DNA of 64,000 nt from Trypanosoma brucei (taxonomy: Eukaryota), in assembly GCA_000002445.1 (NCBI GenBank), contig CH464491.1:2816001-2880000 (forward strand). Direction: 5' to 3'. Position numbers and translations under genes: made by a program. Every line of letters begins with the position of its first letter. Within the stretch, counting starts at the first letter, position 1. Shown piece by piece: positions 12,815 through 39,152 of this stretch. The notes below the pieces were generated by a model. It worked only from the letters and a program-made list of their open reading frames with translations, searched no databases and was not told where the DNA came from.

Positions 12815-13221
12815 AATACGATACGGAACACAACAAGAAGGAAGGCGAAAACAGCAAAGTGGAAAACTGTGTTTTTCAGAACAAAACAAATTTCTCTACG
12901 ACCAAGTATTGTGAACCGCAATATTCCCTAAGGCACCTCATGAGAAACGTGAGAATGGAACATTTTAGTGCAAGGAGTTTACGTTTCTAAAACGCGATGT
13001 CAGGAAGGAAAGAAACAATACTCAGAGTCAGCGTCCGAGTAAATATCCCATCGCATGATAAGGATTATTAAATCTACGACGCAAACGTTGCCTCAATCGG
13101 AAGCAGAAGTATAAGCGCGGGTCATAACATCCACACGAGCTCAGATAAACAACACAAAGTTTTCAAACGGAAACAAACCACTGACACAAGGTGAAAAAAA
13201 AAGCGAATTATCCCGTCGTGA

Positions 13222-13263
13222 CCTTATTTTCCTTGTGCTTTCACCCTTCTCTCCCTCTCTTAG
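13222..13263 (+). promoter_or_regulatory. polypyrimidine tract + AG: putative trans-splice acceptor signal for RPSA copy 1
   Basis: 'ccttattttccttgtgctttcacccttctctccctctcttag' ends 35 nt upstream of the ATG. It is duplicated exactly upstream of copy 2, at 37549..37590. Confidence 0.6.
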
Positions 13264-13297
13264 TTCCAAAGCATTACGCAACTCCCACACACGCAAT

Positions 13298-14032
13298 ATG
13301 ACCTCCGTCTCGTCCGGCGCTAAGGTCCTCCGAATGAAGGAGAGCGACGTGCAGAAGTTGCTCGCCATGCACTGCCACCTCGGCACGAAGAACAGCAGCA
13401 GCGCCATGAAGAAGTACATCCACGGGCGCACAAGCGACGGCACAAATATCATTGATATCCACATGACGTGGGAGAAGCTGATCCTTGCCGCCCGTGTGAT
13501 CGCTGCGGTGGAGAACCCACAGGATGTCACCGTCTGTTCCACACGCCTATTCGGGCAGCGCGCCATCTTCAAGTTTTCCCAACTCGTTGGGACATCGTTC
13601 CTCGGTGGCCGGTTTATTCCCGGTACATTCACCAACCAGATCCAGAAGAAGTTCATGCAGCCACGCGTTCTGGTTGTCACGGATCCCCGCACAGACCACC
13701 AGGCCCTACGTGAAGCGAGCCTTGTCAACATCCCCGTCATTGCTTTCTGCGACACGGACGCACCACTGGAGTTTGTTGACATTGCCATCCCGTGCAATAA
13801 CCGTGGACGCCATTCTATCAGCATGATGTATTGGCTGTTAGCCCGGGAGGTGCTGAGGCTCCGTGGCACCATCCCACGTAGTGTCCCATGGGAAGTGAAA
13901 GTGGACCTCTTCTTCTACCGTGACCCTGAAGAGGCATTGAAGCAAGAGGAGGCCACCGCCGCAGCTGAGGTCCATGAAGAAGCTGACGAGGGTTATGGAT
14001 GGGTGGAGCGCGACAACACATGGGAGCAGTAA
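13298..14032 (+). CDS. RPSA: 40S ribosomal protein SA (p40 / laminin-receptor family, uS2), copy 1
   Basis: '[32 protein letters not shown]...[27 protein letters not shown]...[67 protein letters not shown]' is the uS2/SA signature. GC3 is very high, as expected for a highly expressed gene. The ATG at 13298 was chosen over the ORF-track start at 13235, because the upstream codons translate the polyY tract. Confidence 0.9.
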
Positions 14033-14578
14033 GCGAATTGTTGCCTTGGGACAAGCACAGTTGTTTAACATATATGTCTTGGTTGTTACCTCCGTATAAT
14101 TTTTAATTTTTTTTCTTTTCGGTGACCGCGTGCGGCATCGCTAACTTTAGGGAGGAATGAGGCGCTGCGCATTCGAAGGTGCTCTGCCGCTGAACAATGA
14201 CTGCCTCATGACACTATACAACCAACACCTCATTATTGCCCTAAGCGTCGTTTGACAATATTGCATCTCCTCTACAATACCTGTTTCTGTGTGATATTTT
14301 GTATCTGATGTTATATTTCCTTCTTCTTTTCTCTTAACTTCCTTCATTTCCGTACCATCTATTGCAGCGACAAACCCAGGGCAGCGCCAACGGGTGGTGA
14401 GTGAGCACTGGACCCTGCCTAGAGGCCACTCAAAAGTAACTGTCAAGCGGTCGCGCAGGAAAGGCTAAAAGTAGGCAAGGAATTGTGCGTGCACCACTGT
14501 GTAATTGAAACTCATCGGTACTTGTATCAATCACGTATTGTCAAAGCTCATTTTTAGTGCTCGGGAACTATTGCTGAG

Positions 14579-15382
14579 TTGGAGCGTGCCACGATGGAGC
14601 CAAGTAAAACCAGCACCCGGCGCAATCCCGATCAGTGCTATGCGTGCTACTCCGAGATTGCTAATATTGTAGCCCAAATGGGTGGGTTGTACTGTCACCA
14701 AAGCAGAAACGCTGGTCCCCAGTTACTCTGTCGTATATGGCGTACACTGTGCGAATCAGTGGAAGAAACCCTCGTGAGAAAGCGTTCTTGCATAATACCA
14801 GACTTCTTACATGCCAGCATCAAGGTGCAGAGGGTCTCGCCATTCGATGGTGAAATTAATTTGTACAAACCACAGATGGTGTTGCTTCCTGACTTTCTTT
14901 CAAAATTCCACGTTCAGAACGTTCTCACCTTTCGCGATGCGCACTATCATGCCACAGTCCCAAATATCATAAGCTTCGATGAGATAGCAGCGATTGTTGG
15001 AACAGATCGGCATATAGTGAAAGCGGCTGTGAGTGAGTCCGTGCGTGAAATTGGGAAATATTTGGATCGCAACAAGTGCGCGGTGTTATCTATCGATGTT
15101 GGTGTTGCTTTTTTGGAATTCCGGGGACGCGAATACCGAATCAAGTGGGCCGACACTTTTCTGGAACGGCTCAAGAGGGAAGTTGGACCCCGCTCCTTCG
15201 TCGAACCGTACATTCCACCAACCATGGCACCAGACGCGAGGGGTTGTCGCTTCCAATCAGAGTGCTTGACGAAGGAATCGCTACATGGGTCGCTAAACGA
15301 TACACTGCAGCGAGAAAGTCGAACTCAGGTGGTGGAGATGTGCGGCTCGCAAAACAAACAGTTTACGCTATCACCTTCTTGA
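14579..15382 (+). CDS. hypothetical protein
   Basis: A 267-aa ORF that begins immediately after the end of the duplicated RPSA segment. I recognise no confident domain. Confidence 0.45.
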   Translation: MERATMEPSKTSTRRNPDQCYACYSEIANIVAQMGGLYCHQSRNAGPQLLCRIWRTLCESVEETLVRKRSCIIPDFLHASIKVQRVSPFDGEINLYKPQMVLLPDFLSKFHVQNVLTFRDAHYHATVPNIISFDEIAAIVGTDRHIVKAAVSESVREIGKYLDRNKCAVLSIDVGVAFLEFRGREYRIKWADTFLERLKREVGPRSFVEPYIPPTMAPDARGCRFQSECLTKESLHGSLNDTLQRESRTQVVEMCGSQNKQFTLSPS

Positions 15383-15822
15383 AAACATCAGTTGCCGCGC
15401 CGGTAGTCTTCAGATGAGAAGAGTTTGAACAGGGAAAAGAATGTGTGCAAGAGGGTTGGAAAAAAAAAACGGCAGTAGTGAGGGTGAACTGATCCTCATC
15501 ACGCGAAATGTACAAATACATTTACTGTCATTATTTTACTTAGAGACTCTGAGAAGGGGGCGTGATTTTGGTGTTGTTTGGTTTTGAAACATGTAGAAGA
15601 GCAAGTTGTAGAAATGGTGTTCTGAAAGGAGGCTGGAGCGGGTACGTGTTGGGGTGTGGTACGACATTTGATATGGTACAAGAGCCCTTCAATCTCTCTC
15701 GGTTTAGTCGACGCATGGAACGGCTGTTGTTCAGTTCTCTGTTTGTCTAACACAAGAAGCGCATATACAGCACCGGCCCGCACGCTGCTGTTGGTTATCT
15801 GGTGATTGAGTGTTGCTTCTAA

Positions 15823-18498
15823 ATGGTATCCCCTGACAGGTGCATGAACAAAGGTTCCTCCCCCACATTCACTGATTTCCCCCCTCTTCTTTTGCTACTT
15901 CTTTCGACTTCGCCATCACCGAATCTACTACAAATAGTTACTCTTGCGCACACACGGATGAACGTCGCGTGGGGGACAAAGACTACACGTAATTGTAATG
16001 AACATATGCTAATGGCTTCTCCAGTGGCAGATGGATCGTGGAATCGGTCAGTGCGTTCTCTCCGTTGCTACAGCACGGAGTCTCATAGGTACAACCATAC
16101 CCCGTGCGACGGCAGCATTCCCATTGCATTTGCTCCGGTGGGCCTATCTTGCCTCCAAACGGGAGCCATCGTGGGGCATGCAAACCAGAATTCATCCATT
16201 CCAGTAGCATGCCAACGTGGCTTATGCACCTACGGTCACGATGTACAACTATTGCAGCATCATCACCAGCTCTACAACCAACGTCAAAGGTTGAGACGCG
16301 GCGCCCCACGCGAAGCCCCCGTAGCAAAAGAGACCGGGAGTGTTGAATACGGCGCGGGCCCTCCGACAGGATCTAACAGCAAGAGACCGCTTCGGTGGGA
16401 GGGTAGTCAGTCTTCTTTGAACGAGTCTCGTAAACAAAAGAAAAGGAACAGTGGGAGTGTGCGCGATCTGCTATTTGTTGCACATGTGTCCAACTTTTCC
16501 CAGTTGGAAGAGTTGCGGCGTACTAATTCCCTTCCGGATTTCCTACAGTCGTTTGTGCCGAAGCAGGCCAATCCGCCAACCACAAGTATGCCGATGAGGT
16601 TCTTGATCGTGGTTGAAAAGTTGTACCTTGCAGCCTGCGTGTCAATCCCACCGTCACCTGAAGATGTTGTTCTCTCTGAGAGGACGGCAGTGGAGTTTCT
16701 TGAGGTTCGGTACGTGCACTGCGACGATGGGCACCTCCTGGTGGACCTAAAGAGCGGTACATGCGTTGCCAAACGCATTCACTCAACATTTCGGAAGGCA
16801 CTGGTGCAACTTTCAAAACTTGAAGCAAAGTTGCTCACCGGTGAATATGCTGGAACCATGCAAGTCCTCCAGGATAAGTCACTTTTCAGAGGCATCTCCT
16901 ACAACCCCCTGGTCTATGCTGCGCTTTTCAACCTCTTAACGCAGAATGGGGGAGAAGAAGACATTGATGCCGCAGACTTGTGGTCAAAACTTATCCGTGA
17001 GCCTACACCCAACAGTTCACACAGTGACACGGCGGAGAGAAGCCATACACGATATGAGAAAGCAGAAGATGGTGAAAAACACTTGGTTGGCGACACTGCT
17101 TCGCTTCTCCCCTCCTGTGGAGTTGCGCTCTTCTCAACTGTTTACGGAGTTCGTTTGTTTAAGCGAGTAATGGGTATCCCCGGGTTGCGGAGGCTTTTTT
17201 TCCAACTGTTGGTGGAAGCAGCGCAGCCGATGTCAGTAACCGAAGTAACGACACCACCACCCTTGAAAGATGATGAAGCACTTGAAAGATCCACGGCCAA
17301 TGTTACGAAACGCCCCTCTGAGCAGTGCTTCATGGCCATCTTCTCGTGCTCACTCACGTCGTATTTCCTCTTTGAGTGCTTCGGTCTCGTGGATGGAGCA
17401 GACTGTTGCGAAGAGGAAGTGGATATCATTTGTGCCTGTCTAAAGCGATCTGCGGTGAAGGTTGCCTGTAGCAACGGTGGAAGCTTCACGATGATTGGGT
17501 TAATCAAGGCCCTTTCCACCCGTCGTTTCGGCGAATGCCAAAGGAACTGGCAGGGGGACGAAGGCAGCGTAATTGTGCACGAAAAGAGTGCGAGTATTAT
17601 CGACCCAAACAGCGAGAGTAATGTCCTCAGCACCTCTTCACCACATGAAAGGCTGCGAGAACGGCGGGTGGAAAGTGACGAAAAGTTTTTCCGCGCGGTC
17701 ATCAGGGGATTTGTGGCCGGTGAAGGCCCAGGAAGTACACGTGAAGAGAAAGTTTCACGAGGCCGCCGCGTGAAGTTTCTTACGCAGCACGTCATCGCAT
17801 GCCGTGTGACGCAGAGCCTCATTCCGGTACTTGTGGATTCCATCCACCTTATGGAGGATCGGATGAAAAAGCGCCAACGGCAGGAACCAGTCAGAAGGGG
17901 GGAAGAGGAGGAGGAGGATTTGTTGGAAGTGCAGTACTTCGAGGACTGTACGGCATTTCTTGAAGAAGCAACTGACCAGTGTGGGTTGATGGTAAACCAC
18001 GCGCATGGGAACTATGTACTTCAGGCGCTCATACGCGAATTAGTTAAGCGTAGTACACCACGGTCATTTGTTGAGAAAATGCTACAGAAAGTGTCAGATA
18101 TGCTCATTGCGTCCATACTTGAGGTTAGCAAGGAAAAATTTGCATCCAACTGCTTAGAAGCAATGATTGACGCCTGCAAGACAGCGCGTGGGGGAAATGG
18201 GATGATTTTATGCCTCGGGTCAACTTTACTCCGTAAGGGAAGGGACCGCATGCTACAAGTGACATTTGATCAATATGGAAACTACGTCGTGCGCAAAATG
18301 CTCAATCATATCACAGCCCTCGCGGTGGGTGAACAGAAAGCAATGGAGAGTGAACGAGAGGAAGCACGCAGACTGAGAGGGCAGTATTTTAGTATACTTG
18401 CGCAAAATTCCGAACAACTTCGCACCGCGCGATACGGATCAGGCATTTACGACTGGATATGTTGCCAGAGCTCCGGAATTCCTGCATCGCATAAATAA
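15823..18498 (+). CDS. PUF/Pumilio-family RNA-binding protein (start codon uncertain)
   Basis: C-terminal Pumilio-repeat signatures: 'NHAHGNYVLQALIRELV', 'KFASNCLEAMID' and 'DQYGNYVVRKMLNHI'. The N-terminal 600 aa are low-complexity. The true start is probably an internal Met, because the ORF-track N-terminus translates a pyrimidine tract. Confidence 0.65.
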   Translation: MVSPDRCMNKGSSPTFTDFPPLLLLLLSTSPSPNLLQIVTLAHTRMNVAWGTKTTRNCNEHMLMASPVADGSWNRSVRSLRCYSTESHRYNHTPCDGSIPIAFAPVGLSCLQTGAIVGHANQNSSIPVACQRGLCTYGHDVQLLQHHHQLYNQRQRLRRGAPREAPVAKETGSVEYGAGPPTGSNSKRPLRWEGSQSSLNESRKQKKRNSGSVRDLLFVAHVSNFSQLEELRRTNSLPDFLQSFVPKQANPPTTSMPMRFLIVVEKLYLAACVSIPPSPEDVVLSERTAVEFLEVRYVHCDDGHLLVDLKSGTCVAKRIHSTFRKALVQLSKLEAKLLTGEYAGTMQVLQDKSLFRGISYNPLVYAALFNLLTQNGGEEDIDAADLWSKLIREPTPNSSHSDTAERSHTRYEKAEDGEKHLVGDTASLLPSCGVALFSTVYGVRLFKRVMGIPGLRRLFFQLLVEAAQPMSVTEVTTPPPLKDDEALERSTANVTKRPSEQCFMAIFSCSLTSYFLFECFGLVDGADCCEEEVDIICACLKRSAVKVACSNGGSFTMIGLIKALSTRRFGECQRNWQGDEGSVIVHEKSASIIDPNSESNVLSTSSPHERLRERRVESDEKFFRAVIRGFVAGEGPGSTREEKVSRGRRVKFLTQHVIACRVTQSLIPVLVDSIHLMEDRMKKRQRQEPVRRGEEEEEDLLEVQYFEDCTAFLEEATDQCGLMVNHAHGNYVLQALIRELVKRSTPRSFVEKMLQKVSDMLIASILEVSKEKFASNCLEAMIDACKTARGGNGMILCLGSTLLRKGRDRMLQVTFDQYGNYVVRKMLNHITALAVGEQKAMESEREEARRLRGQYFSILAQNSEQLRTARYGSGIYDWICCQSSGIPASHK

Positions 18499-20049
18499 GC
18501 GAGGAAGTGGTGCCGAAGTGGAAAAATAAAAGATAAAAGGTAAAAAAAAAAAAAATGTCCTGGAGAATGAATGTATGGTTCTAAGAAGGGATACAAAAAA
18601 AAAAAGAAAAAGAACACTGATCAAATATACGGAAAAATAAGGGAAGACAAGACCACGGTTTTTTTTTGTACTCTAAGCGGTCACGCACCGCCGCGTGATG
18701 ATAAATGTCGTCTTTGTCGCTTCCCCCCTCCCCTTTTGGGGAGAATGTGTTTAACGTCAAAATTGTTATTTTGTCCTTTATGTCCTTTCGTGTCTTTGTC
18801 TTTCTTTTCTTTGCCTTTACTTATAACGGATGAACGCCGTTATTATTACCGTCGTTTCGAGAATAAAATGGAGAGGAAGGCTGACGTGCAGGGAGAAGGG
18901 AAAGTACATTGTCTCTTTTCTTTTTTTTTTTGCTTGTTTCGAATTCCCTTGCTTTTTTTTCCTAATCTCAAAAAAAAAAACGTAATAACACGTGTCCGAA
19001 GTGAAAATTAGCAGGGAAATGAGGAGGAAATTAAAAGGCGAAAGAAGAGGTTTTAAAGAAGCTGCTGATGCTGTATCCTTAACTTTTTAGTGACGGTATT
19101 TGAAAAAAAAAACAGAAATAGAGATTTGTTGATCAGCGCAATGCATTGAACGCATGGTTCCGCTATTTCAAAAAAAAAAGAAACGAAGTGATAAATGGTG
19201 GTTCATGCAGCTAAGTAAAGAACTAAATTGTAGAAAGAAGGTGCAAAGTTTACCAATAACCACAATGACTTTTCTCCCTGCTCTTTTTTATTCTATTCCT
19301 CAAAAAGTAAAGCAAAAAAAACTGCAAGGCAACCAGTCACCACCTCGAAGACTGAGGATTGTGCTTCAGACGGTAAATAAATAATAATAATAATAACAAT
19401 GACAATAAATATAATAAATGTAGCGTTCACTCACAGTTTCTCAAATTTTGATGTTGCCGTTGTTCCATCTTATAACGGTTGAGCTGAAGGGCTACGAAAG
19501 GGAATCCCTCTTTGCTTGCGCCGTGCGTATTTTGCGTGCGCCTGCGCTTTTGTTTGTTCTGTTTTTTTTGTTTGTTTTTGATCTTTAATTTGTTGTGTGT
19601 TGATTATCTTTATCATCTTTTTTTTTTTCACCCTCTTCCTCTGTTGTTGTTGCTATTGTTGAAATGCTTTATACTCTTCTTGCGACTGCAAGTTACTACT
19701 GTCGTTAAAAAACTTTATATTAATGATTTTCTTTTTTGTTGTTAAATACGTTGAATCACTGCTGCAGTAGACGTATTTTAAAAAAAAAAGAAAGTGGGGG
19801 AAGAAGTTTTGCTCATGAACGGCACGCTCTTTTATATGTGTGTGCTGTTTTTAATTCACGCTTGTTGCCACTTGCGACGGGCGGTGCCGGTATTAATTTT
19901 CATTTGTTTTGTTTGTTTGTTTTTTTTCGTTTGTTTTTTTTTACTTTTTATGAAGATACGAATGTAACCATTCGTCACCGCTTCTTCCCCCACACTTACC
20001 TCTTATGTACATTTTTTTTTGTTTTTGTCTGATATTGTCATCCTTGAAA

Positions 20050-20112
20050 ACAACAACGGCAACAGCAACAACAACAACAACAACAGTAACAATAATAATA
20101 ATAATATATTAT
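20050..20112. repeat. (CAA)n/(AAT)n trinucleotide repeat
   Basis: 'caacaacggcaacagcaacaacaacaacaacagtaacaataataataataat', within the 3-kb ORF-free region downstream of the PUF gene. Confidence 0.9.
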
Positions 20113-21546
20113 TATTATTATGTTATATTATATATTTTGTGTTATAAATGTTACTACTATTGTATAATATGTATACGTATGAAGAATATTTATACAATTA
20201 TATATCTCAATATGCTTTGAGTTTCCTTTCCTTACTTTCCCCCTCTATCCTTTCTTTTGTTTTTCCTTTCTATCAGTTTTTTTTTCTTGTATTATCCAAA
20301 ATTGGGGTACTCCTCTTTCATTTATTGATTTGTTAATGTATTTATGAACTTACAGTTTTTTTTTTAAAAAAATAAAAACGTTCATCTTTATATATTGAAA
20401 TATATCTTTATATATTTATTTATGTATTTTACCAGACAGTTTTGCCTCCTCTGCCCCCTCATTGTTTCAAGTACTGTTGTAATGCAATTTTGGTTTGCTT
20501 CCTTTTAACTTTTTTCCATAACAAATTTGATTTTTCTTTAACGCGAGAGAAACAAATATAATTTATAAATATGATATATAATTATCTGACTTAATTTGTT
20601 TTGTTTTGTTTTTTTAATGTTTCATATAGAAGGGGACACAACATTGATAAGTAAATAGATAAATAAATAATTTATTTCAAGTCTTTTGTTTGGTTTTTTT
20701 TTGAAAATGAAAAGCTATGAGTGAAACGGGGGGGGAAGCGGAGGGCTCACGGGACTATTTCGTCACTCCTTCTTTTTTTTTCAGTACAATTGTGACGAAA
20801 AGAAAAGAAAATGTAGGGAAGGGAGTCGGTAATATTAATATTTAAAAAAAAAAGGGAAATAGGAAATTTTTTTACCACTATTGTTGCTACTAATACCGGT
20901 GTTTGTTTGGTGCCAAACACCATCTGTTTCCATTTTAATTCTTTTGTGTTTATATGTTTTCTTTTTCTTTTGCCTCTTCTTTCCTACTTTATCCTCTTGT
21001 TTGTTTGACTTTTTTTTTCTCCCACTGATTCCTTCATGATCCACTTAGGCCCGTGAATTTGGACCGTTGTTTGTTGGCTCTTTTAGTTTGTTCGTTTGTT
21101 TGTTTGTTTGTTTTTGTTTTTGTTTTTGTTTTTTTTTGTTTTGCCTTTACTTTACTTTGCTTTGCTCGAGTGTTCCACCACAAGACGCCGCGCAGGTCGA
21201 CCAGCGCTGACAGTTTGCAGAAAAAAAAAGGAAATAAAATTTGTAAATAAAATAAAACAGAGTCACAAGAAGGAAACAAGGGGGAACGGCGTAGTGGAGG
21301 CAGCGGTATCACCGACTTAACCCACCTCTTCGTACTCACTTACTCCGTGTGTGTGTGTGTACGCGCGCGCTGTTGTATTTGTTTGTGTGTCTGGTTTATT
21401 AGAGGGGGAAACAAAAGGAAAGAAACCAACAAAAACAACAGGAAAACGCTGGAAGGCAAACTAACAGAGAGGCAACAGTAACAGTCAGATAAAAGAGGGG
21501 AAGGGAAAAGGAAAGTAGAAAGGAGGAATAACAAAAAAGGACAGGT

Positions 21547-22431
21547 ATGAACTACCCGATGTATGTTGGCGAGTACTCCGATGATCGTACAGGCTTCGAT
21601 GAGGAGGTTGACGAGGAAGTCATACCGTGGATTGTGTGGTTCTGCGAAATGAAGAGCCACGAGTTTTTCTGCGTGGTGGACAGGGACTTCATTGACGATG
21701 AGTTCAACCTTACCGGTCTTTCCTCCATGGTATCCTTCTACCACTATGCGCTCGATCTGATTCTGGACCTCGAAACGCAGAGCAGCTCCCGGCTGACGGA
21801 AGAACAACAGCGGCTTGTGGAGTCCTCCGCCGAAACGCTTTACGGTCTCATCCACGCCCGCTTCATCACGACACCGCGCGGTTTGAAGCTTATGGAAGAA
21901 AAATTTGTCGAAGGGGAGTTTGGCCGGTGCCCCCGAGTGTTTTGTGGCGGCCAAGCGGTGTTACCCGTGGGCCAGAGTGACGTGGTGCGCGAAAGCTCAG
22001 TGAAACTCTTCTGTCCAAAATGTCAGGACATTTATTATCCGCGGTCCTCACGACACCGCGCACTAGACGGTGCCTTCTGGGGGACAACGTTCCCACACCT
22101 CTTTCTTATGCATCTCAGGGAGAATGGAAAGGTGATTGGGCGCCCCAAGCAGCAATATATCCCTCGTATCTACGGCTTTCGGCTGCACAACAAGGAAAAG
22201 TGCGTTCGCGACGAAGATGTGGAGCGGGCCGGGAGTGTTGGCGGTGGTGCTGCAGGCGCCGACGAGGGAGATGCCGAAGAAGAGGAAGAACAAGAGGAAG
22301 AGGAGGGAAGTCACCACCAGCAACAAATTGGTGGGGAGGGCAGTACACGACAAAATACACCCAACTCTCGTAAGGGACGGAGTGGCGCTAGGGGGCCCAG
22401 AGGAGAGCCTGAGGAGACACCAAAGAGATAA
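21547..22431 (+). CDS. CK2B: casein kinase II regulatory (beta) subunit
   Basis: 'LYGLIHARFITTPRGLKLMEEKFVEGEFGRCPRVFCGGQAVLPVGQSDVVRESSVKLFCPKCQDIYYPRSSRH...AFWGTTFPHLFLM' matches the CK2-beta core, including the Cys4 zinc finger (CPRVFC...CPKC). A Glu/Gly-rich C-terminal tail follows. Confidence 0.85.
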   Translation: MNYPMYVGEYSDDRTGFDEEVDEEVIPWIVWFCEMKSHEFFCVVDRDFIDDEFNLTGLSSMVSFYHYALDLILDLETQSSSRLTEEQQRLVESSAETLYGLIHARFITTPRGLKLMEEKFVEGEFGRCPRVFCGGQAVLPVGQSDVVRESSVKLFCPKCQDIYYPRSSRHRALDGAFWGTTFPHLFLMHLRENGKVIGRPKQQYIPRIYGFRLHNKEKCVRDEDVERAGSVGGGAAGADEGDAEEEEEQEEEEGSHHQQQIGGEGSTRQNTPNSRKGRSGARGPRGEPEETPKR

Positions 22432-28416: not shown

Positions 28417-28787
28417 TTTGTGCGTGTGTGTGCGTGTGTGTGTGTCCTCACCAGATGAATCTTGCCTCCCTCTCCCCCCCGTACCGAAAAGGATAGAGGG
28501 CTGAGCAGGTGAAACTGTAGGAGGGGGATGTGAACGGCACCTGAGGAACTCGCTAACTGGTCCACACATAATTGCACGGCAGAACCGCGTGGACATCCTC
28601 CTGGTTATGTCGTACATTTTTAGTTAAAATGGTTGTAGCCTACGACTATAAGGTAAATAAGACAGTTCGTCGTCAGTACGTGTAGTAAATAAAGTGCTAT
28701 TGCGTGAACGAAGCAGCCGTATATGGCCATTCTACGGGAGTTGCACGTGACCGTAGGTACGAAAATGCTTTATAAAATCGCCTGGCG

Positions 28788-29639: not shown

Positions 29640-30730
29640 GGTTGCGTGGCCGTCCGTCTGCTTGCCCTTGTGTGCGTGTGTTTGTGACCACTTGAAATGA
29701 AATAACAAACACTGACGCGAAGGTTGGTCCCAAAGAGAGGCGTTACAAATGTTAAGCGAAGGAGATTAATGAAGGAAATAACTGACACATTATAGCCGGA
29801 ACACCCACGAATGCGGGGACGGGTTTGGGTTCAACCGAAAGATTCGAGCTTGAGCTTAACGAATTGGGGATATAACCAAAGGTTCCAAAAAAAAAAAAAA
29901 GAATGGGACCTGACATTCCTCTATTACCACGTTATCTTCCTGTCACAACTTCGTGACGCATGATCTGCATTACTATCGGCAGATGAAAGGGTTGGAGAAA
30001 GGCGCCGCCTGTTCCAACAAGTGATTCATTTATATTAGGGGTTTGCGGGGAGCAACAACGTGACGCAAAGCTTGCCTAACCAGCATTTATCATTTTCCCG
30101 TCGTCCATTACTGGTCTTAATATTTATGTGGGCGGGAAAATGTAAGATAGGATTCTTATGCCGCTCCAGTGCCCGCTCGTTCGTGAGCCGCGGGTTATTG
30201 TCGTGCCGTATTGCTCCGAAGCGGTTCATTCCTACGTGTTGAGAAGGTCGCTGGCGTATAATTATTTTTTTTGAGAAGCTTTGACTAGCGTTTGCTTCGT
30301 TTTGGACACTCGTTATTGTAGGAAGCTGCTCATTCAGGCAGAAAGGGTTATTGAAGTCGCATATTCCTCGTGACAACCTCTTGGTGTAAATTGTTATTTA
30401 CATTTGACAGTGGTGGTAAGTGGACATCTATGCTCACAGAAGGACGTTCATATGCATATATTCAGGGAACTGCAACACGGTTAGTGGGTTCTGACTTGAT
30501 AGGCGCGTGGGCAACCGTGTCCTCGTTTCGCCTAATGCTATCGGGAACTTCAAGTGGTGTGGAGCCTCCCGTTACTGTTGGTAACGTTTGGAAAAAGGAA
30601 ACAACTCGCCGCATTGAGCTTCCTTCATCTACTGGCATCTACAGAAATGCCAGCCCTCCGACCTCCCATGCTTGAAAACCATGCACTTGTTGTTGCAGCG
30701 CTTGCCATGTCATTCCCCTCCCCACACGTG

Positions 30731-30763
30731 TCTTCTCTAATACTTTTGTTTTTTAGTCCTGAG
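30731..30763 (+). promoter_or_regulatory. polypyrimidine tract + AG immediately upstream of proposed gamma-CA-like start
   Basis: 'tcttctctaatacttttgttttttagtcctgag' directly precedes the ATG at 30764. This supports the shorter gene model. Confidence 0.45.
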
Positions 30764-32059
30764 ATGCTTCGCCGTACACTTTCGCGCTGCTTTTCTGCGG
30801 ATGCCATTGGCCCCGTGCACCCCGATGTGATGTGGGGATATATGGACGCCCGCTACGCAGGGCCGGGGTGGGTGAGTTGGATCAAGCAGTTGCCCGTCGA
30901 AACGCTCACCATGCAGGGTGGCACCTCCATGACAAATATGAACGACCGTACCGGCGTCATTGCCGACCCAGAGGATCCCCGGCATCCAATAGCGCTCATA
31001 CAATGGGGACCCATGAACCACTATGACGGAGCCTTCATGCAACTCTCCTACGGAGACTACGGTCCAATCAGCCAAGGCTCCCGACTAATGCAGGTGCTCT
31101 ACGATAACTATTTGGAACCCTTTTCCATGAACCGGGTGTGTGCCCAGCTGTACTTCTATCAGAAGGTGCCGAACAACTACCACGAGTCTGTTGAGGCTTC
31201 TGCCGAATATATTGGCCAAACTGCCTCGCTCATTGGGCAAGTGTTGGTAGGAATGGGTTCTGTTATTATGGAAGGTGTGACGGTGAAGGGTGACACGAAC
31301 TGTGTGTACATTGCAGAGGGCGTACAAGTGTTGGAAAACACGTGTATAGTGAGTGACGCTCCAACCGACCTCCTTGCCTATCAGCGGCACGAGGCAATCA
31401 ACCCCTACCAGCAATGGGACGGCATGGATGGTGTGTGTAGAATCATGCAGAACACGATCATTGAACCTAACTGCTTCTTGGATAGCTGTTCCATCGGGCC
31501 TTTCAATCGCATAGGTCACAATACCAAGATCATGAAGGGGGTAACGACAGGAACGATGGTCCATATCCTCCCGGGAAGCGTTGTAACAAAGGACACAAAA
31601 ATTGGCGACGGTGAGCTTTGGGGTGGTGCTCCTGCGGTTAAAATTGGAAAAGTGAGCAAATTCGAGTGGAAACGTCCCTACTTCGCCTCCCTCCTGCACA
31701 GAGAGAGCGTAGTGGAGTCTTACCGCAACATGTCGCGGTATGGTGACCAGGTGGTGCACTTTCAAGACAAGATGGGAAAGTTAGATACGCTCATGCTGCA
31801 ATATGAAAAGGATGTTCCAGCTTCTGTGAAGGCGAAGATAAAGGAGTTTGTACAGGGGCGTGAACCGTTCCATCATATGCTGACGCGGATCACGCAAGGT
31901 TGGTCGCCCGCTAACCGCCCAGACGACAAGAACTACAATCTGTGCCCACCGCTTCCGGGAGTGAAACTGTTTGCGGAGCACAATAACGATTCCTCTGATA
32001 GTGATCTTCATGGAACTTATATGGACATCACAAATATATTTAACGACTTCCGCTGGTAG
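30764..32059 (+). CDS. gamma-carbonic-anhydrase-like hexapeptide-repeat (left-handed beta-helix) protein with predicted mitochondrial presequence
   Basis: The ATG at 30764 is preceded by a polyY tract and AG. The N-terminal 'MLRRTLSRCFSA' is presequence-like. LbH hexapeptide blocks include 'IGQVLVGMGSVIMEGVTVKGDTNCVYIAEGVQVLENTCIVSD'. The segment 'GSVVTKDTKIGDGELWGGAPAVKIGKVSKFE' parallels the gamma-CA C-terminus. The ORF-track start at 30554 is probably over-extended. Confidence 0.55.
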   Translation: MLRRTLSRCFSADAIGPVHPDVMWGYMDARYAGPGWVSWIKQLPVETLTMQGGTSMTNMNDRTGVIADPEDPRHPIALIQWGPMNHYDGAFMQLSYGDYGPISQGSRLMQVLYDNYLEPFSMNRVCAQLYFYQKVPNNYHESVEASAEYIGQTASLIGQVLVGMGSVIMEGVTVKGDTNCVYIAEGVQVLENTCIVSDAPTDLLAYQRHEAINPYQQWDGMDGVCRIMQNTIIEPNCFLDSCSIGPFNRIGHNTKIMKGVTTGTMVHILPGSVVTKDTKIGDGELWGGAPAVKIGKVSKFEWKRPYFASLLHRESVVESYRNMSRYGDQVVHFQDKMGKLDTLMLQYEKDVPASVKAKIKEFVQGREPFHHMLTRITQGWSPANRPDDKNYNLCPPLPGVKLFAEHNNDSSDSDLHGTYMDITNIFNDFRW

Positions 32060-32941
32060 GTTCAGTCGTGCTTACTCGCTTTTCTTTGCTGACATACGCA
32101 CCTCCTGCGCGTTGGTGGTTTTTTTCGTGGTCGTATGTTTCTACCGCGGGCAAGAAGTTTAGGAATGGTATCTGTACCTTATACATGCGCGTGTCTGCTT
32201 ACATACACGTGTGCACCTTAGGAGTACGGAGCGAAGAGAGCATTTGTAACTCCAACGACGTTTGAGTTGTAGACGGGAATACATGAGGAAGGTGTGCTTG
32301 ATGAAATAGCGGTGGTCTCTCTCTACTTGAATTCCCCTCATAGCGGCTGATCACCTCAGACGGATGCAATTCTTTCTTTTGTGCTTTTCTCCGTCCCGTG
32401 GGGAAGGGAGGTGTGCGCGTGAGGAAGGAGGCGGCGAGGCTGAAATTGAGGGTTACAAGAGATGACGGCATTAGTACTAGTAGTAGCAGTATCATTGTTG
32501 TTTGAACCCAAATGTATGTCGTGTTTCATGTGTGTGGCGGGAGCGCTATTCTTGGGCTGTTGGGTGCTACCAACAGAAGTGGTGTATGAATTAGGATATG
32601 GTTAGTGTTTATCGTCTTGCTGGGTAATGTAGTGGGGGTGCGGTTAGGTACGGATATTCGACAGCTGTGCAGATACACCTCTGTTTGTTTTCTTCCGACT
32701 CGTTCGATGAGTAGCGCAGCGCTCGCATTTATCACGATGCCTTTACCCTCAGTCTTTCGACCCTTAACCTTTAGACTTATACGCAACGAGGCAAGAGCGC
32801 GTACGTGAATTTTCTATGGGTAAATAACATGTTTCTGCTTCTGCGGGCACACCTTTGTTTAGGTACGGAGAACAGTGTAATATTTGTGTGCTCTTTTCAT
32901 ATTTCTTCTCTTTTATGGACTTCAAACCCGATGATTGATGA

Positions 32942-34270
32942 ATGGGGAAGATACATGAGATTGTAAAGCCACGACAAATGGATACGAGCTCGCCGAACTT
33001 CGGCCTCAAAAGCCCTTATGCCCATCGGGATGCATCAGATGAAATCGACGAGCTTCGAAGTGAGGTAGCCCTCCTGCGGCAACGCCAGGAACAGCACATG
33101 ATGCGGTGGGAAGCCGCCATGAAGGAACAGCGGCAGCATTGCTGTGATTTGGCTGCCGTATATCGGCAATTACAAGAGTTGGTAAATGGCATCCCGGACG
33201 ACAGTTTGGGCGTTGCAAGGAAGAAACCCCTTCGCCCGTCGCCTCCTGATAGCACCTTGCTTGATGAGGTTCGTGAGGTGCTGCTCGACTTCAAAAACTA
33301 CATTGAGCGAGGCAGAATCGTCACCAATCAAAAACTTGAGGATATGTACAATGGCATAGGGGAGGTGAAGAGGGCCTTGGAGGAGGAAGCACAACATCGG
33401 AAGCGAGGGGAAGAACGGCTCAGACGGCTAGAAGAAAAGCAGGAGCAATTGTTCCAGTTGGTAGCCTCTGCTGCTTCAGCTAACGATTTGAGCACGCTAC
33501 GCACTACATTGACTGAGTTGTTCAAGTCCGGACAGAATGATTTGGTAGTCTCCTCATCACGGCAGTACGACAGTGTGAAAGAGAGAATAGCGGACTGCGA
33601 AAGGCAGTTTCGTGCGCTACAAGCAGAGCGTGAGCATAGTGAAAGGAAGTTGGAGTCTCTATGTCATGGGAACCTCCAAACAGCGGAAGTCAGCATTCAA
33701 CAGCTACAGCGGCGAGTGGAGACCCTTTGCCAAGAGCTGCGGGCTCACACAGCGCCGCAAAACGCTGAGAAGCCCAGCGCTCAAACATACACGGCATACA
33801 AGATAGATGAAATGTTGGCGTCGCTTGAGATGCGAATGTCCGAGCGTGTCGATACAACTATCAAGCAATTTGATATGAAGCATGTGCAGTTCGTTGAGCA
33901 CATGGTGGACTCTGCAAAGAAGGCCATTGAGGTGGCGGATAACCTGCCAAAACAAGTAAACCACCTGCAGGACGAGGTTGCAAATATTCAAGAGGCCATT
34001 CAGCGTCATGGTGAGGCGCTGAACGATCAGTTCCTACAGGGCCCGCTGTATGGCGCCTTTGAAGAAGTGAGGGGCTGGCTGCGAGATGTTGAACAACACA
34101 CGGTGAAGCGTGGCGAATTCAACGAAGCGATGGTCAATTTTGATGAGAAACTTGCGTCGCTGAGACGTGAGTTTCTTATTGGTGGGTCGGTGGAGCATGT
34201 TTCGGATGAAAGTGCCGATGACACTGGCGCGTTTAGACAATCAAAATTAGCTATCATAGCGCCCCCATGA
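32942..34270 (+). CDS. coiled-coil protein, hypothetical
   Basis: A 442-aa ORF with heptad-rich E/K/Q/L composition throughout. Confidence 0.5.
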   Translation: MGKIHEIVKPRQMDTSSPNFGLKSPYAHRDASDEIDELRSEVALLRQRQEQHMMRWEAAMKEQRQHCCDLAAVYRQLQELVNGIPDDSLGVARKKPLRPSPPDSTLLDEVREVLLDFKNYIERGRIVTNQKLEDMYNGIGEVKRALEEEAQHRKRGEERLRRLEEKQEQLFQLVASAASANDLSTLRTTLTELFKSGQNDLVVSSSRQYDSVKERIADCERQFRALQAEREHSERKLESLCHGNLQTAEVSIQQLQRRVETLCQELRAHTAPQNAEKPSAQTYTAYKIDEMLASLEMRMSERVDTTIKQFDMKHVQFVEHMVDSAKKAIEVADNLPKQVNHLQDEVANIQEAIQRHGEALNDQFLQGPLYGAFEEVRGWLRDVEQHTVKRGEFNEAMVNFDEKLASLRREFLIGGSVEHVSDESADDTGAFRQSKLAIIAPP

Positions 34271-34743
34271 CGTTGCTGCGCTCAGATGTGGCTGTTCTTC
34301 GTCGTGTACGTACAAGCCCAGAGACCTTTCGCACTACCGTCGGGGCTCATCCGTATCTGGAAGAAAAAAAAAGGTGTAACGGCAGGGGGACGGGCAGGTG
34401 CCTTCTCGGTGCTGTAGCTTGGCGTATTTATATCCGCACTATTTGGGACACCTGGTACCTTTTGTGTATGTCCCGAATTTACGTAGACTCGCCACCGTGT
34501 GGTAATTCTTTTGGAGCCGAGTACTCATAATGTGTACTATTTCAACCTAACTTCTCTGTGTATTACCTTTGTGGTCTTGTTGCGCTGCGAGTGGGCTTTG
34601 TTAGTGTTCACTTTCCTTTCTTCTTTCCTTCAATGCACCTTCATACGCCTTCTGTTGTATTTTTTAAGTAAACACGCGTGCCCTAGAGGGTGGGATAAAC
34701 TACTACCGTACGCAGGTCCACTGCTGCACAAGGAGTTGGAAAG

Positions 34744-37290
34744 ATGGAAAACGGAAAGAATGACGAATTTACCGTGAGTGATGAGGCCGTGGAGAACCTC
34801 CAGAAGGATTTTGAGGAGGCAATGGCAGCCCTCGCTGAGCATGAAAGCTTCGATCGTTTCCGAATGGAATATGACGTCTTATATCGTGCGCTTCGCAAGA
34901 GTCACGACTCCGAAAAGCGGCTTGTGAAACGGTGCCAGCAGCTCACGCAGGAGCTGATGAGTAATGCGGCGAAGGTGCAGGCCGCACTGAAGTTGTCTCA
35001 GTCAGACCACACTACAATAGATGCACTGAAGAAGGAAATTGAAAAGGCGTGGCGGATGGTCGATTCTGCAAATGAAAAAGATGCCCACGCGAAGGAAACA
35101 ATGAAAAATTTAAAGGAAGAAGTGGCATCACTGCAGGAAATTATGGCCAACGGTGCTGAGCTCACCTCTTCGCAGTCTGCAACCCTAGAGGGACTGAAGT
35201 TGGAGAAAAAAAGGATGGAAATGGAGTATGGTGAGTTGGTGAAGCAGATGGACAACCTGACGAAGGAAATAAAGGAGCTGAACACGAAATCGAAGGAACT
35301 TGAGGTCGAAATTATGAACAATCAAGAAGAGTTTAAGCGTGTTACGGACAGGGAGACCTTGATACAACAGGAGTACGACAAAGAAATAAAAGCTCGGGAG
35401 CGTGCCGACTTTCAGGTGAAAGAGCAGCTGCATTTAGCGCAACAAAGGGCAAAAGAGCTGAAGACTCACGAACAACTGCGTATCAACCTGACAGAGACGG
35501 TAACTAAACTCCGCGCGCAGGTACAAGAGGATAACGAAAAGCGCCAGCTGCTGGAGCAAAAAATCGAGACGGCAGAGAAACAACTGTACCACACGCAGCA
35601 ATCTTACGATGACGCTGTTGATACCACAGAGGCCCTCAACGAGCGACATCGCGCCGTGTGTAAGGAGATTGCAGAAGCTGAGAAAATGGCACACGACCTT
35701 CTTTCAGAGGAAGAGCGAACGCGCGCAGTGTGTGATGGCGATTACAAGAAGCTGCGTCGCCTCATACAGCAGAACGACGACGTAAGACAGGAGTATGAAA
35801 ACCTGACTCGCCAGCAGAGCAACATTCAAAAGCGCATTAATACGGTAAAGAAAGAGAGGCATGCCATGAATAATGCCTACGAGGTTTTGCAGAAGGAACA
35901 GGATACCCTCAAGAAGTATGGTGAACACGAACGAAAGAAGTTGCAAACCATCGAAGGCATTATAGCAAACGAAGTGGAAAGTCAAAAAGATGTAGAAGCC
36001 GCTATTGAACGTGAGCGGGAAATAAGCGTCCGCCTTAGCAAAACAATAGCAAAACTAGAAAGTGAGAGGGAGAAATATACAGCGGAGGTGCTGCAGGCCG
36101 TCGAGCAGCATGCACTCGTGAAGGAAGATCTGAAGGTTGCCACTATAACTTGCAATGAGACACAAAAGGCGATAGAAGAGAGTGAGCAGCGACTAAAGAA
36201 GCAACAGGGACTTTATGAGCAGGCGAGGGCTGAACGTAACCTCTACACAAAGAAATTGATCGAGTCACAGGACGAAGTGATGGAACTGAAACAGGGCTTC
36301 CGAATGATGGACCACCAAATTAGACAATTGAAGGAAGAACTGGCAATGAAAGAGAAGAAATTTCAGGATGAAACATCTGCGCAGAAGATAGCAAAGGAAA
36401 AACTTGCCAAAGTACGCCGCGTTGTCAATGAGCGTACCATAGCCCTCGACGACACGATTCGTAATTGCGAGAATGTCGCACAAAACATTAAACAACTTGT
36501 CAAAGTTGTTAATGAATGTGATAAACAACTTAGCGAGCAGCGTCAAATGTTCTTGTCAGTTAGTAACGAGCGTGACATGCTTGGTACTCAACTAATCCGT
36601 CGTAATGACGAGCTTGCCTTGCTTTACGAGAAAATTCGTATGCAACAAGAAGTACTTAGCCGTGGGTATGCCGCATGCCGCGCGCGCCAGGAAGATATGC
36701 GCCTTCTGCGTTTGAAGACTGAGGACCTCAAGCGGCAGGCCAAAATAGCAGATAGGCGAGCACAGGACACGAAACAGTTGCAAGAAGATATCAAGCAACT
36801 GGTGTACGATCTCACAGTGCAGCGCGCGAAGGTGCAAGCCCTCACCGAGGAGGCCGAGAACCCAAAGAGCTCACTTAGGTGGGAAAAGGTGGATGGCCGG
36901 AATCCAACGGCGGAAGAGCTCAACCGCAAGATATTCCGTCTTCAACGTCGGCTTATCACAAAATCGGAGGAATGTGTTGAAAAGGATATGGAACTGCAGG
37001 AAAAGCAGCGCCTCCTAACGGAGTTGACGAACATACTCGCGCGGCAGCCGGGGCCTGAAGTGGTACAGAGGCTTAACATGTGCCAAAAGGAGCTACACCG
37101 TACTTGCTCCGTAATGAAGCAGAAGGCATCAGAACTCAATATGACAGGAACGCACTTCGCTGAGTTAAAATATGAAGCCGAGCGACTTAGGCGGGAGGTC
37201 AATGATACAAGACGCAAGTACTACGAGATGCGAATGAGTAACGATGAACTAACGAAAGCGATGGAGGCTTCGAGGAGCATTAAGTCGTGA
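34744..37290 (+). CDS. long coiled-coil protein, hypothetical (cytoskeletal/flagellar type)
   Basis: An 848-aa ORF that is almost entirely predicted coiled coil, with no globular domain. Confidence 0.55.
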   Translation: MENGKNDEFTVSDEAVENLQKDFEEAMAALAEHESFDRFRMEYDVLYRALRKSHDSEKRLVKRCQQLTQELMSNAAKVQAALKLSQSDHTTIDALKKEIEKAWRMVDSANEKDAHAKETMKNLKEEVASLQEIMANGAELTSSQSATLEGLKLEKKRMEMEYGELVKQMDNLTKEIKELNTKSKELEVEIMNNQEEFKRVTDRETLIQQEYDKEIKARERADFQVKEQLHLAQQRAKELKTHEQLRINLTETVTKLRAQVQEDNEKRQLLEQKIETAEKQLYHTQQSYDDAVDTTEALNERHRAVCKEIAEAEKMAHDLLSEEERTRAVCDGDYKKLRRLIQQNDDVRQEYENLTRQQSNIQKRINTVKKERHAMNNAYEVLQKEQDTLKKYGEHERKKLQTIEGIIANEVESQKDVEAAIEREREISVRLSKTIAKLESEREKYTAEVLQAVEQHALVKEDLKVATITCNETQKAIEESEQRLKKQQGLYEQARAERNLYTKKLIESQDEVMELKQGFRMMDHQIRQLKEELAMKEKKFQDETSAQKIAKEKLAKVRRVVNERTIALDDTIRNCENVAQNIKQLVKVVNECDKQLSEQRQMFLSVSNERDMLGTQLIRRNDELALLYEKIRMQQEVLSRGYAACRARQEDMRLLRLKTEDLKRQAKIADRRAQDTKQLQEDIKQLVYDLTVQRAKVQALTEEAENPKSSLRWEKVDGRNPTAEELNRKIFRLQRRLITKSEECVEKDMELQEKQRLLTELTNILARQPGPEVVQRLNMCQKELHRTCSVMKQKASELNMTGTHFAELKYEAERLRREVNDTRRKYYEMRMSNDELTKAMEASRSIKS

Positions 37291-37548
37291 GCATCGGTAC
37301 GGAGCGACGCCGACTGTCAGGCATTTGTTAACCACACTCGTCAACTACCGGAAGGTGAACAGCTGAACACACTTAGACTTCGTTGTCAACATTGCCACAC
37401 ATGTAGAATATACCTTATTCCCTTATTTCACCTCACCTCACACTACCCTTTGTTTGTTGTCTCGCCGCAGATTGTGAGCGGTTTTACGCACAAGTACTGA
37501 ACATTACAGAGGCGAAGCTGACTACAATGACAGAAACATCCCGTCGTG

Positions 37549-37590
37549 ACCTTATTTTCCTTGTGCTTTCACCCTTCTCTCCCTCTCTTA
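37549..37590 (+). promoter_or_regulatory. polypyrimidine tract + AG: putative trans-splice acceptor signal for RPSA copy 2
   Basis: Same sequence as 13222..13263, included in the duplicated unit. Confidence 0.6.
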
Positions 37591-37625
37591 GTTCCAAAGC
37601 ATTACGCAACTCCCACACACGCAAT

Positions 37626-38360
37626 ATGACCTCCGTCTCGTCCGGCGCTAAGGTCCTCCGAATGAAGGAGAGCGACGTGCAGAAGTTGCTCGCCATGCAC
37701 TGCCACCTCGGCACGAAGAACAGCAGCAGCGCCATGAAGAAGTACATCCACGGGCGCACAAGCGACGGCACAAATATCATTGATATCCACATGACGTGGG
37801 AGAAGCTGATCCTTGCCGCCCGTGTGATCGCTGCGGTGGAGAACCCACAGGATGTCACCGTCTGTTCCACACGCCTATTCGGGCAGCGCGCCATCTTCAA
37901 GTTTTCCCAACTCGTTGGGACATCGTTCCTCGGTGGCCGGTTTATTCCCGGTACATTCACCAACCAGATCCAGAAGAAGTTCATGCAGCCACGCGTTCTG
38001 GTTGTCACGGATCCCCGCACAGACCACCAGGCCCTACGTGAAGCGAGCCTTGTCAACATCCCCGTCATTGCTTTCTGCGACACGGACGCACCACTGGAGT
38101 TTGTTGACATTGCCATCCCGTGCAATAACCGTGGACGCCATTCTATCAGCATGATGTATTGGCTGTTAGCCCGGGAGGTGCTGAGGCTCCGTGGCACCAT
38201 CCCACGTAGTGTCCCATGGGAAGTGAAAGTGGACCTCTTCTTCTACCGTGACCCTGAAGAGGCATTGAAGCAAGAGGAGGCCACCGCCGCAGCTGAGGTC
38301 CATGAAGAAGCTGACGAGGGTTATGGATGGGTGGAGCGCGACAACACATGGGAGCAGTAA
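37626..38360 (+). CDS. RPSA: 40S ribosomal protein SA (uS2), copy 2 (identical to copy 1)
   Basis: The nucleotide sequence is identical to 13298..14032, as part of a 1.35-kb perfect duplication. The ATG at 37626 was chosen over the ORF-track start at 37527 for the same reason as copy 1. Confidence 0.9.
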
Positions 38361-39152
38361 GCGAATTGTTGCCTTGGGACAAGCACAGTTGTTTAACATA
38401 TATGTCTTGGTTGTTACCTCCGTATAATTTTTAATTTTTTTTCTTTTCGGTGACCGCGTGCGGCATCGCTAACTTTAGGGAGGAATGAGGCGCTGCGCAT
38501 TCGAAGGTGCTCTGCCGCTGAACAATGACTGCCTCATGACACTATACAACCAACACCTCATTATTGCCCTAAGCGTCGTTTGACAATATTGCATCTCCTC
38601 TACAATACCTGTTTCTGTGTGATATTTTGTATCTGATGTTATATTTCCTTCTTCTTTTCTCTTAACTTCCTTCATTTCCGTACCATCTATTGCAGCGACA
38701 AACCCAGGGCAGCGCCAACGGGTGGTGAGTGAGCACTGGACCCTGCCTAGAGGCCACTCAAAAGTAACTGTCAAGCGGTCGCGCAGGAAAGGCTAAAAGT
38801 AGGCAAGGAATTGTGCGTGCACCACTGTGTAATTGAAACTCATCGGTACTTGTATCAATCACGTATTGTCAAAGCTCATTTTTAGTGCTCAGGGGACAGC
38901 TGTTGTTAGTTGTTGATACAGATTTATTTGGTGAACTGAAGTGTAGTTTAAAACTATTTTTTTTTTCGAGTGTTAGCGCGGTAACTGAAGCAGTGAGCTT
39001 CACCGATTTTGTTGAGGGCACGGGAAGCTAAGCACCCCCTCCCCACCCTCGGGTCGTGTAATAGCCGAGGGCTATTGTAACAACGGCCCACACTGCACGT
39101 CGTCAAAAGGAGATCGGAGTATTTGGAGTAGCCCCCCCCAAAAAAAAAAAGA

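Follow-up and report, generated by a model that had tools for sequence, protein, structure and literature searches.

The stretch of DNA analysed here, 64,000 nucleotides of Trypanosoma brucei (GenBank assembly GCA_000002445.1, contig CH464491.1, positions 2,816,001 to 2,880,000 of the forward strand; hereafter the window), carries two copies of the gene for 40S ribosomal protein SA (RPSA, or uS2), which share one orientation and are separated by 24.3 kb within a single series of genes on the same strand. Direct comparison across the window showed that each gene is part of an exact, ungapped direct repeat of 1,353 bp at an offset of 24,328, each unit consisting of 88 bp 5′ of the ATG, the 735-bp coding sequence (CDS) and 530 bp 3′ of the stop codon (Table 1). 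An earlier, sequence-only reading of the window had reported identical segments at 13211..14565 and 37538..38893, made up of about 87 bp of upstream sequence, the CDS and about 530 bp of downstream sequence, non-tandem, in the same orientation, and separated by 24 kb and about 11 unrelated genes. This description proved accurate, with coordinates within 1–3 nt of those measured; 11 unrelated plus-strand genes lie between the copies, in agreement with the accession gap from EAN80031 to EAN80043. The self-alignment proposed with that reading revealed no mismatch in the 1,353 bp and a single indel, which appeared only where blastn extended the edge of the match to 13210-14565 and 37538-38894. Outside both ends of the repeat, similarity falls at once to the random level, and the same outer limits (−88 and +530/533) were found in two other assemblies of the T. 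brucei group. When a 132-bp tandem array described below was set aside, self-blastn of the window identified the RPSA repeat as its sole dispersed repeat of at least 80 bp. An exact match of 1.35 kb within 64 kb is beyond chance.

The two CDSs do not differ at any synonymous or non-synonymous site. Their common product matched the Pfam family Ribosomal_S2 (PF00318) with 91.2 bits against a cut-off of 26.1 (E = 7e-26, both copies), while the family for the eukaryote-type C-terminal extension, 40S_SA_C (PF16122), reached only 20.4 bits against its cut-off of 25, over profile positions 1-26 of 95. The 244-residue (aa) protein is an exact match to the annotated 40S ribosomal protein SA of T. b. 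brucei TREU927, T. b. gambiense and T. equiperdum. Exact matches were found twice on chromosome 11 of T. b. gambiense DAL972 (FN554974.1), twice on CM010682.1 of GCA_003543875.1 and once on a scaffold of T. equiperdum OVI; by the matching gambiense record, the pair sits on T. brucei chromosome 11. One of the two genes has been cited as Tb927.11.10790 (PMC3493610). The identifier Tb927.11.10670 was considered for the other and rejected, as it belongs to a glycosyl hydrolase.

At the second locus an in-frame ATG upstream of the RPSA start codon opens a 277-aa open reading frame (ORF) that is 100% identical to the TREU927 entry EAN80043.1 (P0129), whose listed accessions include the Protein Data Bank chain 4V8M_AC; 4V8M is the T. 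brucei ribosome structure. Judged by this protein identity, the window is TREU927-like. This ATG lies in flanking sequence specific to locus 2 and reads AAG in gambiense and in GCA_003543875.1, and the 277-aa model crosses the repeat boundary and runs through the polypyrimidine (polyY)/AG acceptor signal described next. The 33-aa extension that it confers on copy 2 is probably, on the evidence of these sequences, an annotation artefact.

A sequence scan located two polyY/AG combinations in the repeat. The unit begins 52 nt 5′ of the first acceptor AG and contains the accompanying polyY tract, and this AG is the only one from the start of the tract up to that point. General rules of trypanosome trans-splicing predict that it serves as the RPSA splice acceptor. 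The second combination, 330 nt past the stop codon and also inside the repeat, is the only strong polyY/AG in the T. brucei RPSA 3′ intergenic region. As a general rule, stated for example in PMC9380746, the position of a poly(A) site in trypanosomes is determined by the splice signal that follows it. Accordingly, the second signal would be expected to fix where the RPSA transcript is polyadenylated and, downstream of copy 1, to provide the acceptor of the CCDC81-like gene; if the rule applies, the repeat unit would hold everything that defines the RPSA messenger RNA (mRNA). At locus 2, the scan found no comparable polyY tract between the repeat end and the ATG of the downstream 317-aa gene. 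Because of this, the 317-aa gene may use the same repeat-borne acceptor, so that two unrelated downstream genes would share one signal. The sequence-only reading had suggested that the unit looks like a self-contained expression cassette; its sequence fits that description, with its own polyY/AG, CDS, 3′ flank and next strong polyY/AG, although the processing sites are predicted ones.

Table 1. Features of the two RPSA loci (positions in the window)
Feature	Position	Strand	Remarks
Copy 1 of the repeat, very probably a homogenised unit (locus 1)	13210..14562	+	Between 279-aa gene and CCDC81-like gene
PolyY tract (13222-13261) and first AG (13262-13263), predicted trans-splice acceptor of RPSA copy 1	13222..13263	+	Sequence scan; twin at 37550-37591
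RPSA/uS2 (40S ribosomal protein SA) CDS, copy 1	13298..14032	+	735 bp, 244 aa; Pfam Ribosomal_S2
PolyY tract and AG (14366-14367) in 3′ flank	14309..14367	+	Sequence scan; twin at 38637-38695
CCDC81-like gene, downstream neighbour at locus 1	14594..15382	+	Pfam HU-CCDC81_euk_1/2; ATG 31 nt past repeat end
Upstream in-frame ATG and 33-codon extension giving the 277-aa annotation of copy 2	37527..37625	+	Probably spurious
Copy 2 of the repeat, very probably a homogenised unit (locus 2)	37538..38890	+	Between CFAP58-like gene and 317-aa gene
RPSA/uS2 CDS, copy 2	37626..38360	+	244 aa; nucleotide-identical to copy 1
317-aa gene, downstream neighbour at locus 2	39153..40106	+	No Pfam match; not a paralogue of the CCDC81-like gene

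Perfect identity that stops abruptly and is confined to a single gene is what would be expected if a 1.35-kb RPSA cassette had been duplicated segmentally in the T. brucei lineage so recently that the copies had no time to diverge. The sequence-only reading had proposed a comparison of synteny among related trypanosomatids, and this comparison placed both copies at the same two loci in six lineages. Gene order is kinesin–VHS–~279 aa–RPSA–CCDC81–PUF–…–CK2-beta at locus 1 and NOB1–…–hexapeptide protein–~430 aa–CFAP58–RPSA–~300 aa–tubulin at locus 2. RPSA occupies both slots in the T. brucei group, T. vivax, T. cruzi (three strains), Leishmania martiniquensis, Leishmania major and Leptomonas pyrrhocoris, always in the same orientation and at a spacing of 24-54 kb in all species in which both loci were examined. 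Wherever the CCDC81-like gene was called or detected among the examined species, it was the syntenic neighbour of copy 1. Pairs of accessions about 11 apart, with identical RPSA proteins, were found in T. congolense, L. donovani, L. panamensis and Lotmaria passim. Since both slots are filled in three Trypanosoma lineages and three Leishmaniinae, the duplication is ancient, and gene order would place it before the split of Trypanosoma from the Leishmania lineage. Independent insertion into the same two intergenic sites in six lineages is not credible, and the synonymous divergence of orthologues (about 1; see below) is likewise at odds with a recent event. We consider a recent duplication in T. 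brucei highly improbable.

We also considered a larger ancestral duplication. This was rejected: the genes neighbouring RPSA at the two loci are not paralogues, and the 317-aa gene showed no homology to the CCDC81-like gene (BLASTP E = 0.098). As the flanking genes are non-paralogous, the original duplication took in RPSA only. The intervening genes encode CCDC81-like, PUF, CK2-beta, NOB1, hexapeptide-repeat/eIF2B-like and CFAP58-like proteins, and several have no Pfam match.

Two observations on locus structure in other species were made in passing. The distance between the loci in T. cruzi is 33.7 kb in GCA_013358655.1 versus 54.2 kb in GCA_015033625.1; about 20 kb has been gained or lost between the RPSA copies in one strain. 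In Angomonas deanei (LR877145.1), for which the contigs examined cover locus 1 only, that locus carries two complete tandem RPSA genes (10001-10729 and 11013-11741), in a tandem unit of 920 bp that is 99.1% identical and free of N (L018 9968-11899); the second gene is annotated over 67 aa only. A search for CFAP58 homologues returned no entry from Bodo or Angomonas.

Divergence at synonymous sites (dS) was calculated by the Nei-Gojobori method on a codon alignment, and a neighbour-joining tree was constructed. Within species, paralogues were 98.8-100% identical, with dS of 0 in the three T. brucei-group assemblies, T. vivax and L. martiniquensis and of 0.006 (one site) in two T. cruzi strains. 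Between species, orthologue dS was 0.98-1.00 for T. brucei and T. cruzi, 1.26 for T. brucei and T. vivax and 1.28 for T. brucei and L. martiniquensis. In the tree, paralogues grouped by species and, in T. cruzi, by strain. Two T. cruzi strains differed at seven synonymous sites at both loci, as against one between paralogues, so that homogenisation must have gone on after the strains diverged. Similarly, L. major and L. martiniquensis differed by 37 nt in all four copy comparisons, as against 0-2 between paralogues.

Inside the homogenised tract the non-coding flanks are at least 99% identical between paralogues, while no flank homology could be detected among T. brucei, T. vivax and T. cruzi; the only matches between species flanks were the CCDC81 coding sequence and those of the closely related cruzi/conorhini pair. 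A match between the Angomonas 3′ flank and the T. conorhini 5′ flank was considered as a possible non-coding RNA and rejected, since it gave no Rfam or transfer RNA hits and consists of RPSA coding sequence, belonging to a genuine tandem second gene in Angomonas and to a fragment beside a 25-N gap in T. conorhini.

These data bear on the possibility that old copies have been kept identical by strong purifying selection and codon bias, without any recombinational exchange. The ratio of non-synonymous to synonymous divergence is indeed low (dN/dS about 0.05), and both RPSA genes are listed among those with the most abundant transcripts in T. brucei (PMC5176191). Nevertheless, synonymous sites that are saturated between species (dS about 1-1.3) are identical between paralogues, paralogues share strain-specific alleles (see below), and the 618 bp of non-coding T. 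brucei flank that is identical between the copies is unalignable with T. vivax or T. cruzi. Because paralogue flanks are identical where orthologue flanks cannot be aligned, selection and codon bias cannot explain the identity, and we assign this explanation next to no probability. The combination of identity within species with saturated dS and unalignable flanks between species therefore requires repeated homogenisation of the two copies.

The limits of the homogenised tract, measured 5′ from the ATG and 3′ from the stop codon, vary with lineage. They are −88/+530 in T. brucei (alike in three assemblies), −162/+554 in T. vivax and about −212/+350 in T. cruzi; in the Leishmaniinae they are −70/+15 in L. 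martiniquensis, −32/+12 in L. major and −29/+51 in Leptomonas. Such variation is as expected from ongoing events and not from one frozen duplication. The tract of the three Trypanosoma species includes the polyY tract and acceptor AG 5′ of RPSA, whereas in the Leishmaniinae it is little more than the CDS and the untranslated regions (UTRs) are locus-specific. The distance from the locus-1 end of the tract to the ATG of the CCDC81-like gene is 31 nt in T. brucei (14562/14594), 41 nt in T. vivax (L016 11286/11328) and about 180 nt in T. cruzi; the values for T. brucei and T. vivax are close although their flanks are unalignable.

The position of these limits also bears on the possibility that RNA was the intermediate, either because one copy is a retrocopy or because complementary DNA (cDNA) derived from mRNA was the donor in conversion. 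A cDNA donor has been proposed for ribosomal protein genes of yeast (PMC6993855), and the near confinement of the Leishmaniinae tract to the 5′UTR-proximal region and the CDS could be read in this way. However, that tract stops 12-51 nt past the stop codon and not at the 3′ end of the mRNA, while the tract of T. brucei, T. vivax and T. cruzi starts 5′ of the polyY tract and acceptor AG, in sequence that mature mRNA lacks, and the T. brucei tract runs on through the second polyY/AG. Inspection of both copies found no poly(A) run at either end of the repeat, and no match to a spliced-leader remnant was obtained with up to three mismatches allowed. The sequence-only reading had argued against retroposition from the lack of a poly(A) tail; the lack of a spliced-leader remnant and the start of the tract 52 nt 5′ of the acceptor AG strengthen the case, and an RNA-mediated origin seems to us barely conceivable. 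Because the Trypanosoma tract includes at least 52 nt 5′ of the acceptor AG that mature mRNA does not contain, and passes a second acceptor signal, a donor at the DNA level is indicated.

Comparison within the T. brucei group hinted at more recent events. In gambiense and in GCA_003543875.1 the CDSs are identical between copies, and in each assembly there are six differences in the flanks. At sites 13885 and 14076, strain-specific alleles are present in both copies, and the linked alleles 14107C/14516T are found at locus 1 of gambiense and, in GCA_003543875.1, at locus 2. Shared alleles, and a haplotype found at different loci, suggest individual exchange events within T. brucei. Three further alleles, 13266T, 14545G and 14556G, are specific to copy 2 in both other assemblies and lie within 10-60 nt of the tract edges, whereas in the window these sites are copy-1-like. 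The perfect identity found here probably reflects a recent conversion over the whole homology block, in the direction from copy 1 to copy 2, as indicated by the copy-1-like state of these edge alleles.

Several considerations weigh against this interpretation. The strain comparison used haploid consensus assemblies of diploid organisms, and locus 1 of gambiense is visibly mis-scaffolded beside the repeat, so that the evidence of a swapped haplotype is soft. Consensus building across the repeat may have contributed to the perfect identity of the copies in this reference. Conversion itself is read from the comparison of sequences and not from a directly observed event, and the splice and poly(A) sites are predicted.

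A rival explanation is that the repeat is an assembly artefact, either a misplaced duplicate or two real copies made identical by consensus or polishing across a collapsed repeat. Assemblies do break or mis-join exactly at the repeat in T. equiperdum OVI (10 N), at gambiense locus 1 (100 N) and in T. conorhini (25 N), and the six flank differences seen between copies in each of the two other T. brucei-group assemblies are missing here. Nevertheless, each copy has unique flanks on both sides that are collinear with orthologous loci in many assemblies, including chromosome-scale ones, and both pairs of junctions are present in GCA_000210295.1 and GCA_003543875.1. Four independent short-read (Logan) contigs from other isolates include the CFAP58 gene and end at 37546-37567, after 9-30 nt of the repeat, where a branch point at a repeat start would be expected. 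In every T. brucei-group assembly the two CDSs are the same, and the missing copy-2 alleles lie so close to unique flank (10-60 nt) that they should have been resolved by flank-anchored reads. We regard an artefact as very unlikely. Of the three explanations left open by the sequence-only reading, gene conversion stands, recent segmental duplication is contradicted by synteny and dS, and mis-assembly by the recovery of both loci in many independent assemblies.

The mis-joins themselves were examined individually. In DAL972 (FN554974.1, L002 11269-12489), the sequence after RPSA copy 1 is that of locus 2 and contains an extra 285-aa ‘gene’, a truncated copy of the 317-aa gene; 100 N come next, and then the final 480 bp of the repeat for a second time. 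A genuine longer duplication of 2,477 bp at this locus, comprising most of the 317-aa gene and the second 480-bp copy, was considered and rejected, as it abuts the 100-N gap; repair ‘overshoot’ and a deletion polymorphism were likewise rejected, the segment being most likely a mis-scaffold through the repeat. In T. equiperdum OVI (CZPT02001007.1, L005 7653-7662), 10 N join the left flank of locus 2 to the upstream sequence of locus 1 and one RPSA copy is represented; the resulting order CFAP58–279aa–RPSA was rejected as real, since the scaffold join falls exactly at the start of the repeat. In T. conorhini (MKKU01000312.1, L008 9671-9836), 25 N separate a 47-codon 5′ fragment of RPSA, together with its upstream flank, from a complete gene, and the contig ends 239 bp further on; the fragment looks like an assembly artefact at the repeat.

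Elsewhere in the window, 18 head-to-tail copies of the 132-bp unit, of which the inner ones are 97-99% identical, occupy 53470-56013 inside a plus-strand ORF at 51559-60030. The array encodes 44-aa repeats within a predicted protein of 2,823 aa whose sole Pfam match is a C2 domain, and the T. cruzi neighbour at the matching position is a C2 protein of 1,749 aa. Long ORF-poor intergenic stretches at 19011-21547 and 45200-48050 abound in (TA)n microsatellites, such as 46187-46246, and in low-complexity runs rich in T and G.

Taken together, the comparisons make it very probable that the repeat is an ancient dispersed RPSA pair subject to recurrent ectopic gene conversion. Under this explanation, two old paralogues of the single-gene SA/uS2 family would have been homogenised repeatedly by non-reciprocal homologous recombination between loci, so as to evolve in concert, and the latest conversion in this genome would have spanned the whole block from −88 to +530, taking in the acceptor signal, 5′UTR, CDS, 3′ flank and next acceptor signal. 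The enzymology would presumably be RAD51-type homologous recombination or synthesis-dependent strand annealing. Crossovers would be purged, because a crossover between direct repeats deletes the 11 intervening genes, among them NOB1, CK2-beta and the eIF2B-like gene. The pair may be retained for the dosage of a very highly expressed mRNA in the absence of gene-specific transcriptional control, and both loci would yield indistinguishable mRNAs.

Precedents for such evolution are known. In Leishmania, duplicated ribosomal protein genes, RPS16 and RPL13a among them, have identical or near-identical CDSs and divergent UTRs (PMC11098316, in which the term gene conversion does not occur). The RPSA pairs of L. 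major, L. martiniquensis and Leptomonas resemble them, being identical over the CDS and some 12-70 bp on each side with locus-specific UTRs, whereas in T. brucei, T. vivax and T. cruzi the acceptor signal and 350-550 bp 3′ of the CDS are identical as well, so that the UTRs are shared. Ectopic gene conversion and concerted evolution have also been described for dispersed beta-tubulin loci in Leishmania (Jackson, Vaughan & Gull, 2006; PMC1533823). As with beta-tubulin, the RPSA genes are syntenic dispersed paralogues whose coding regions group by species and whose flanks are locus-specific in Leishmania. The beta-tubulin loci, however, are on different chromosomes and include arrays, while the RPSA loci are single genes 24-54 kb apart on one chromosome, homogenised in every lineage sampled and, in Trypanosoma, as far as the processing signals.

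In T. brucei itself, gene conversion drives the concerted evolution of tandem arrays, and extra gene copies are an accepted means of raising expression where transcription is polycistronic (Jackson, 2007; PMC1855330). The RPSA pair shares with these arrays the organism, the rationale of dosage and gene conversion as the homogenising force. In the same study, an array copy pair split off by two inserted genes, with unique UTRs, kept its orthology across species (PMC1855330); the RPSA copies, in contrast, are fully homogenised although 11 unrelated genes lie between them. Ribosomal protein paralogues of fungi are kept for transcript dosage and show long-term repeated gene conversion, for which a cDNA donor was proposed in 2019 (PMC6993855). 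The RPSA duplicates are similarly retained, it appears, for dosage and homogenised by repeated conversion. Unlike the fungal pairs, which arose by whole-genome duplication or retroposition, their tract holds a non-transcript polyY tract 5′ of the acceptor, which points to a genomic DNA donor. Finally, Ubeda et al. (2014; PMC4028189) describe extrachromosomal amplification in Leishmania mediated by direct and inverted repeats. The RPSA pair resembles the repeat substrates described there, in that direct repeats of 0.8-1.4 kb flank a segment of 24-54 kb, but no amplification or deletion of the segment between the RPSA genes was seen.

Our literature searches found no paper describing the RPSA pair specifically. 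We conclude that it is a clean but ordinary case of concerted evolution, a phenomenon of a known kind, and it does not overturn current understanding. Two features set it slightly apart: the copies are homogenised over a distance of 24-54 kb and 11 unrelated genes in all lineages sampled, and Trypanosoma differs from the Leishmaniinae in the inclusion of processing signals and UTRs. It is tempting to regard the extent of homogenisation as a selected, lineage-specific trait and not as an accident of tract endpoints, but we hold this only tentatively and think it rather doubtful. If it were true, both Trypanosoma loci would give the same mRNA, and the CCDC81-like and 317-aa genes would share the repeat-borne acceptor, while in the Leishmaniinae the locus-specific UTRs would be free for paralogue-specific regulation. 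The pair would then have evolved in concert since before the split of Trypanosoma and Leishmania, across 24-54 kb of genes that are unrelated and in part essential.

The repeat also has practical consequences. It causes recurrent errors in public genomes, as seen in the mis-scaffolds of DAL972, OVI and T. conorhini and the probably spurious 277-aa TREU927 model, and reads from RNA sequencing and proteomics for the two RPSA genes cannot be assigned to a locus. For the biology of these parasites, the pair would provide a natural example of long-lived concerted evolution of dispersed single-copy paralogues under gene dosage and post-transcriptional control. It would mean that ectopic conversion in trypanosomatids is efficient not only in tandem arrays but also over tens of kilobases of unrelated genes.

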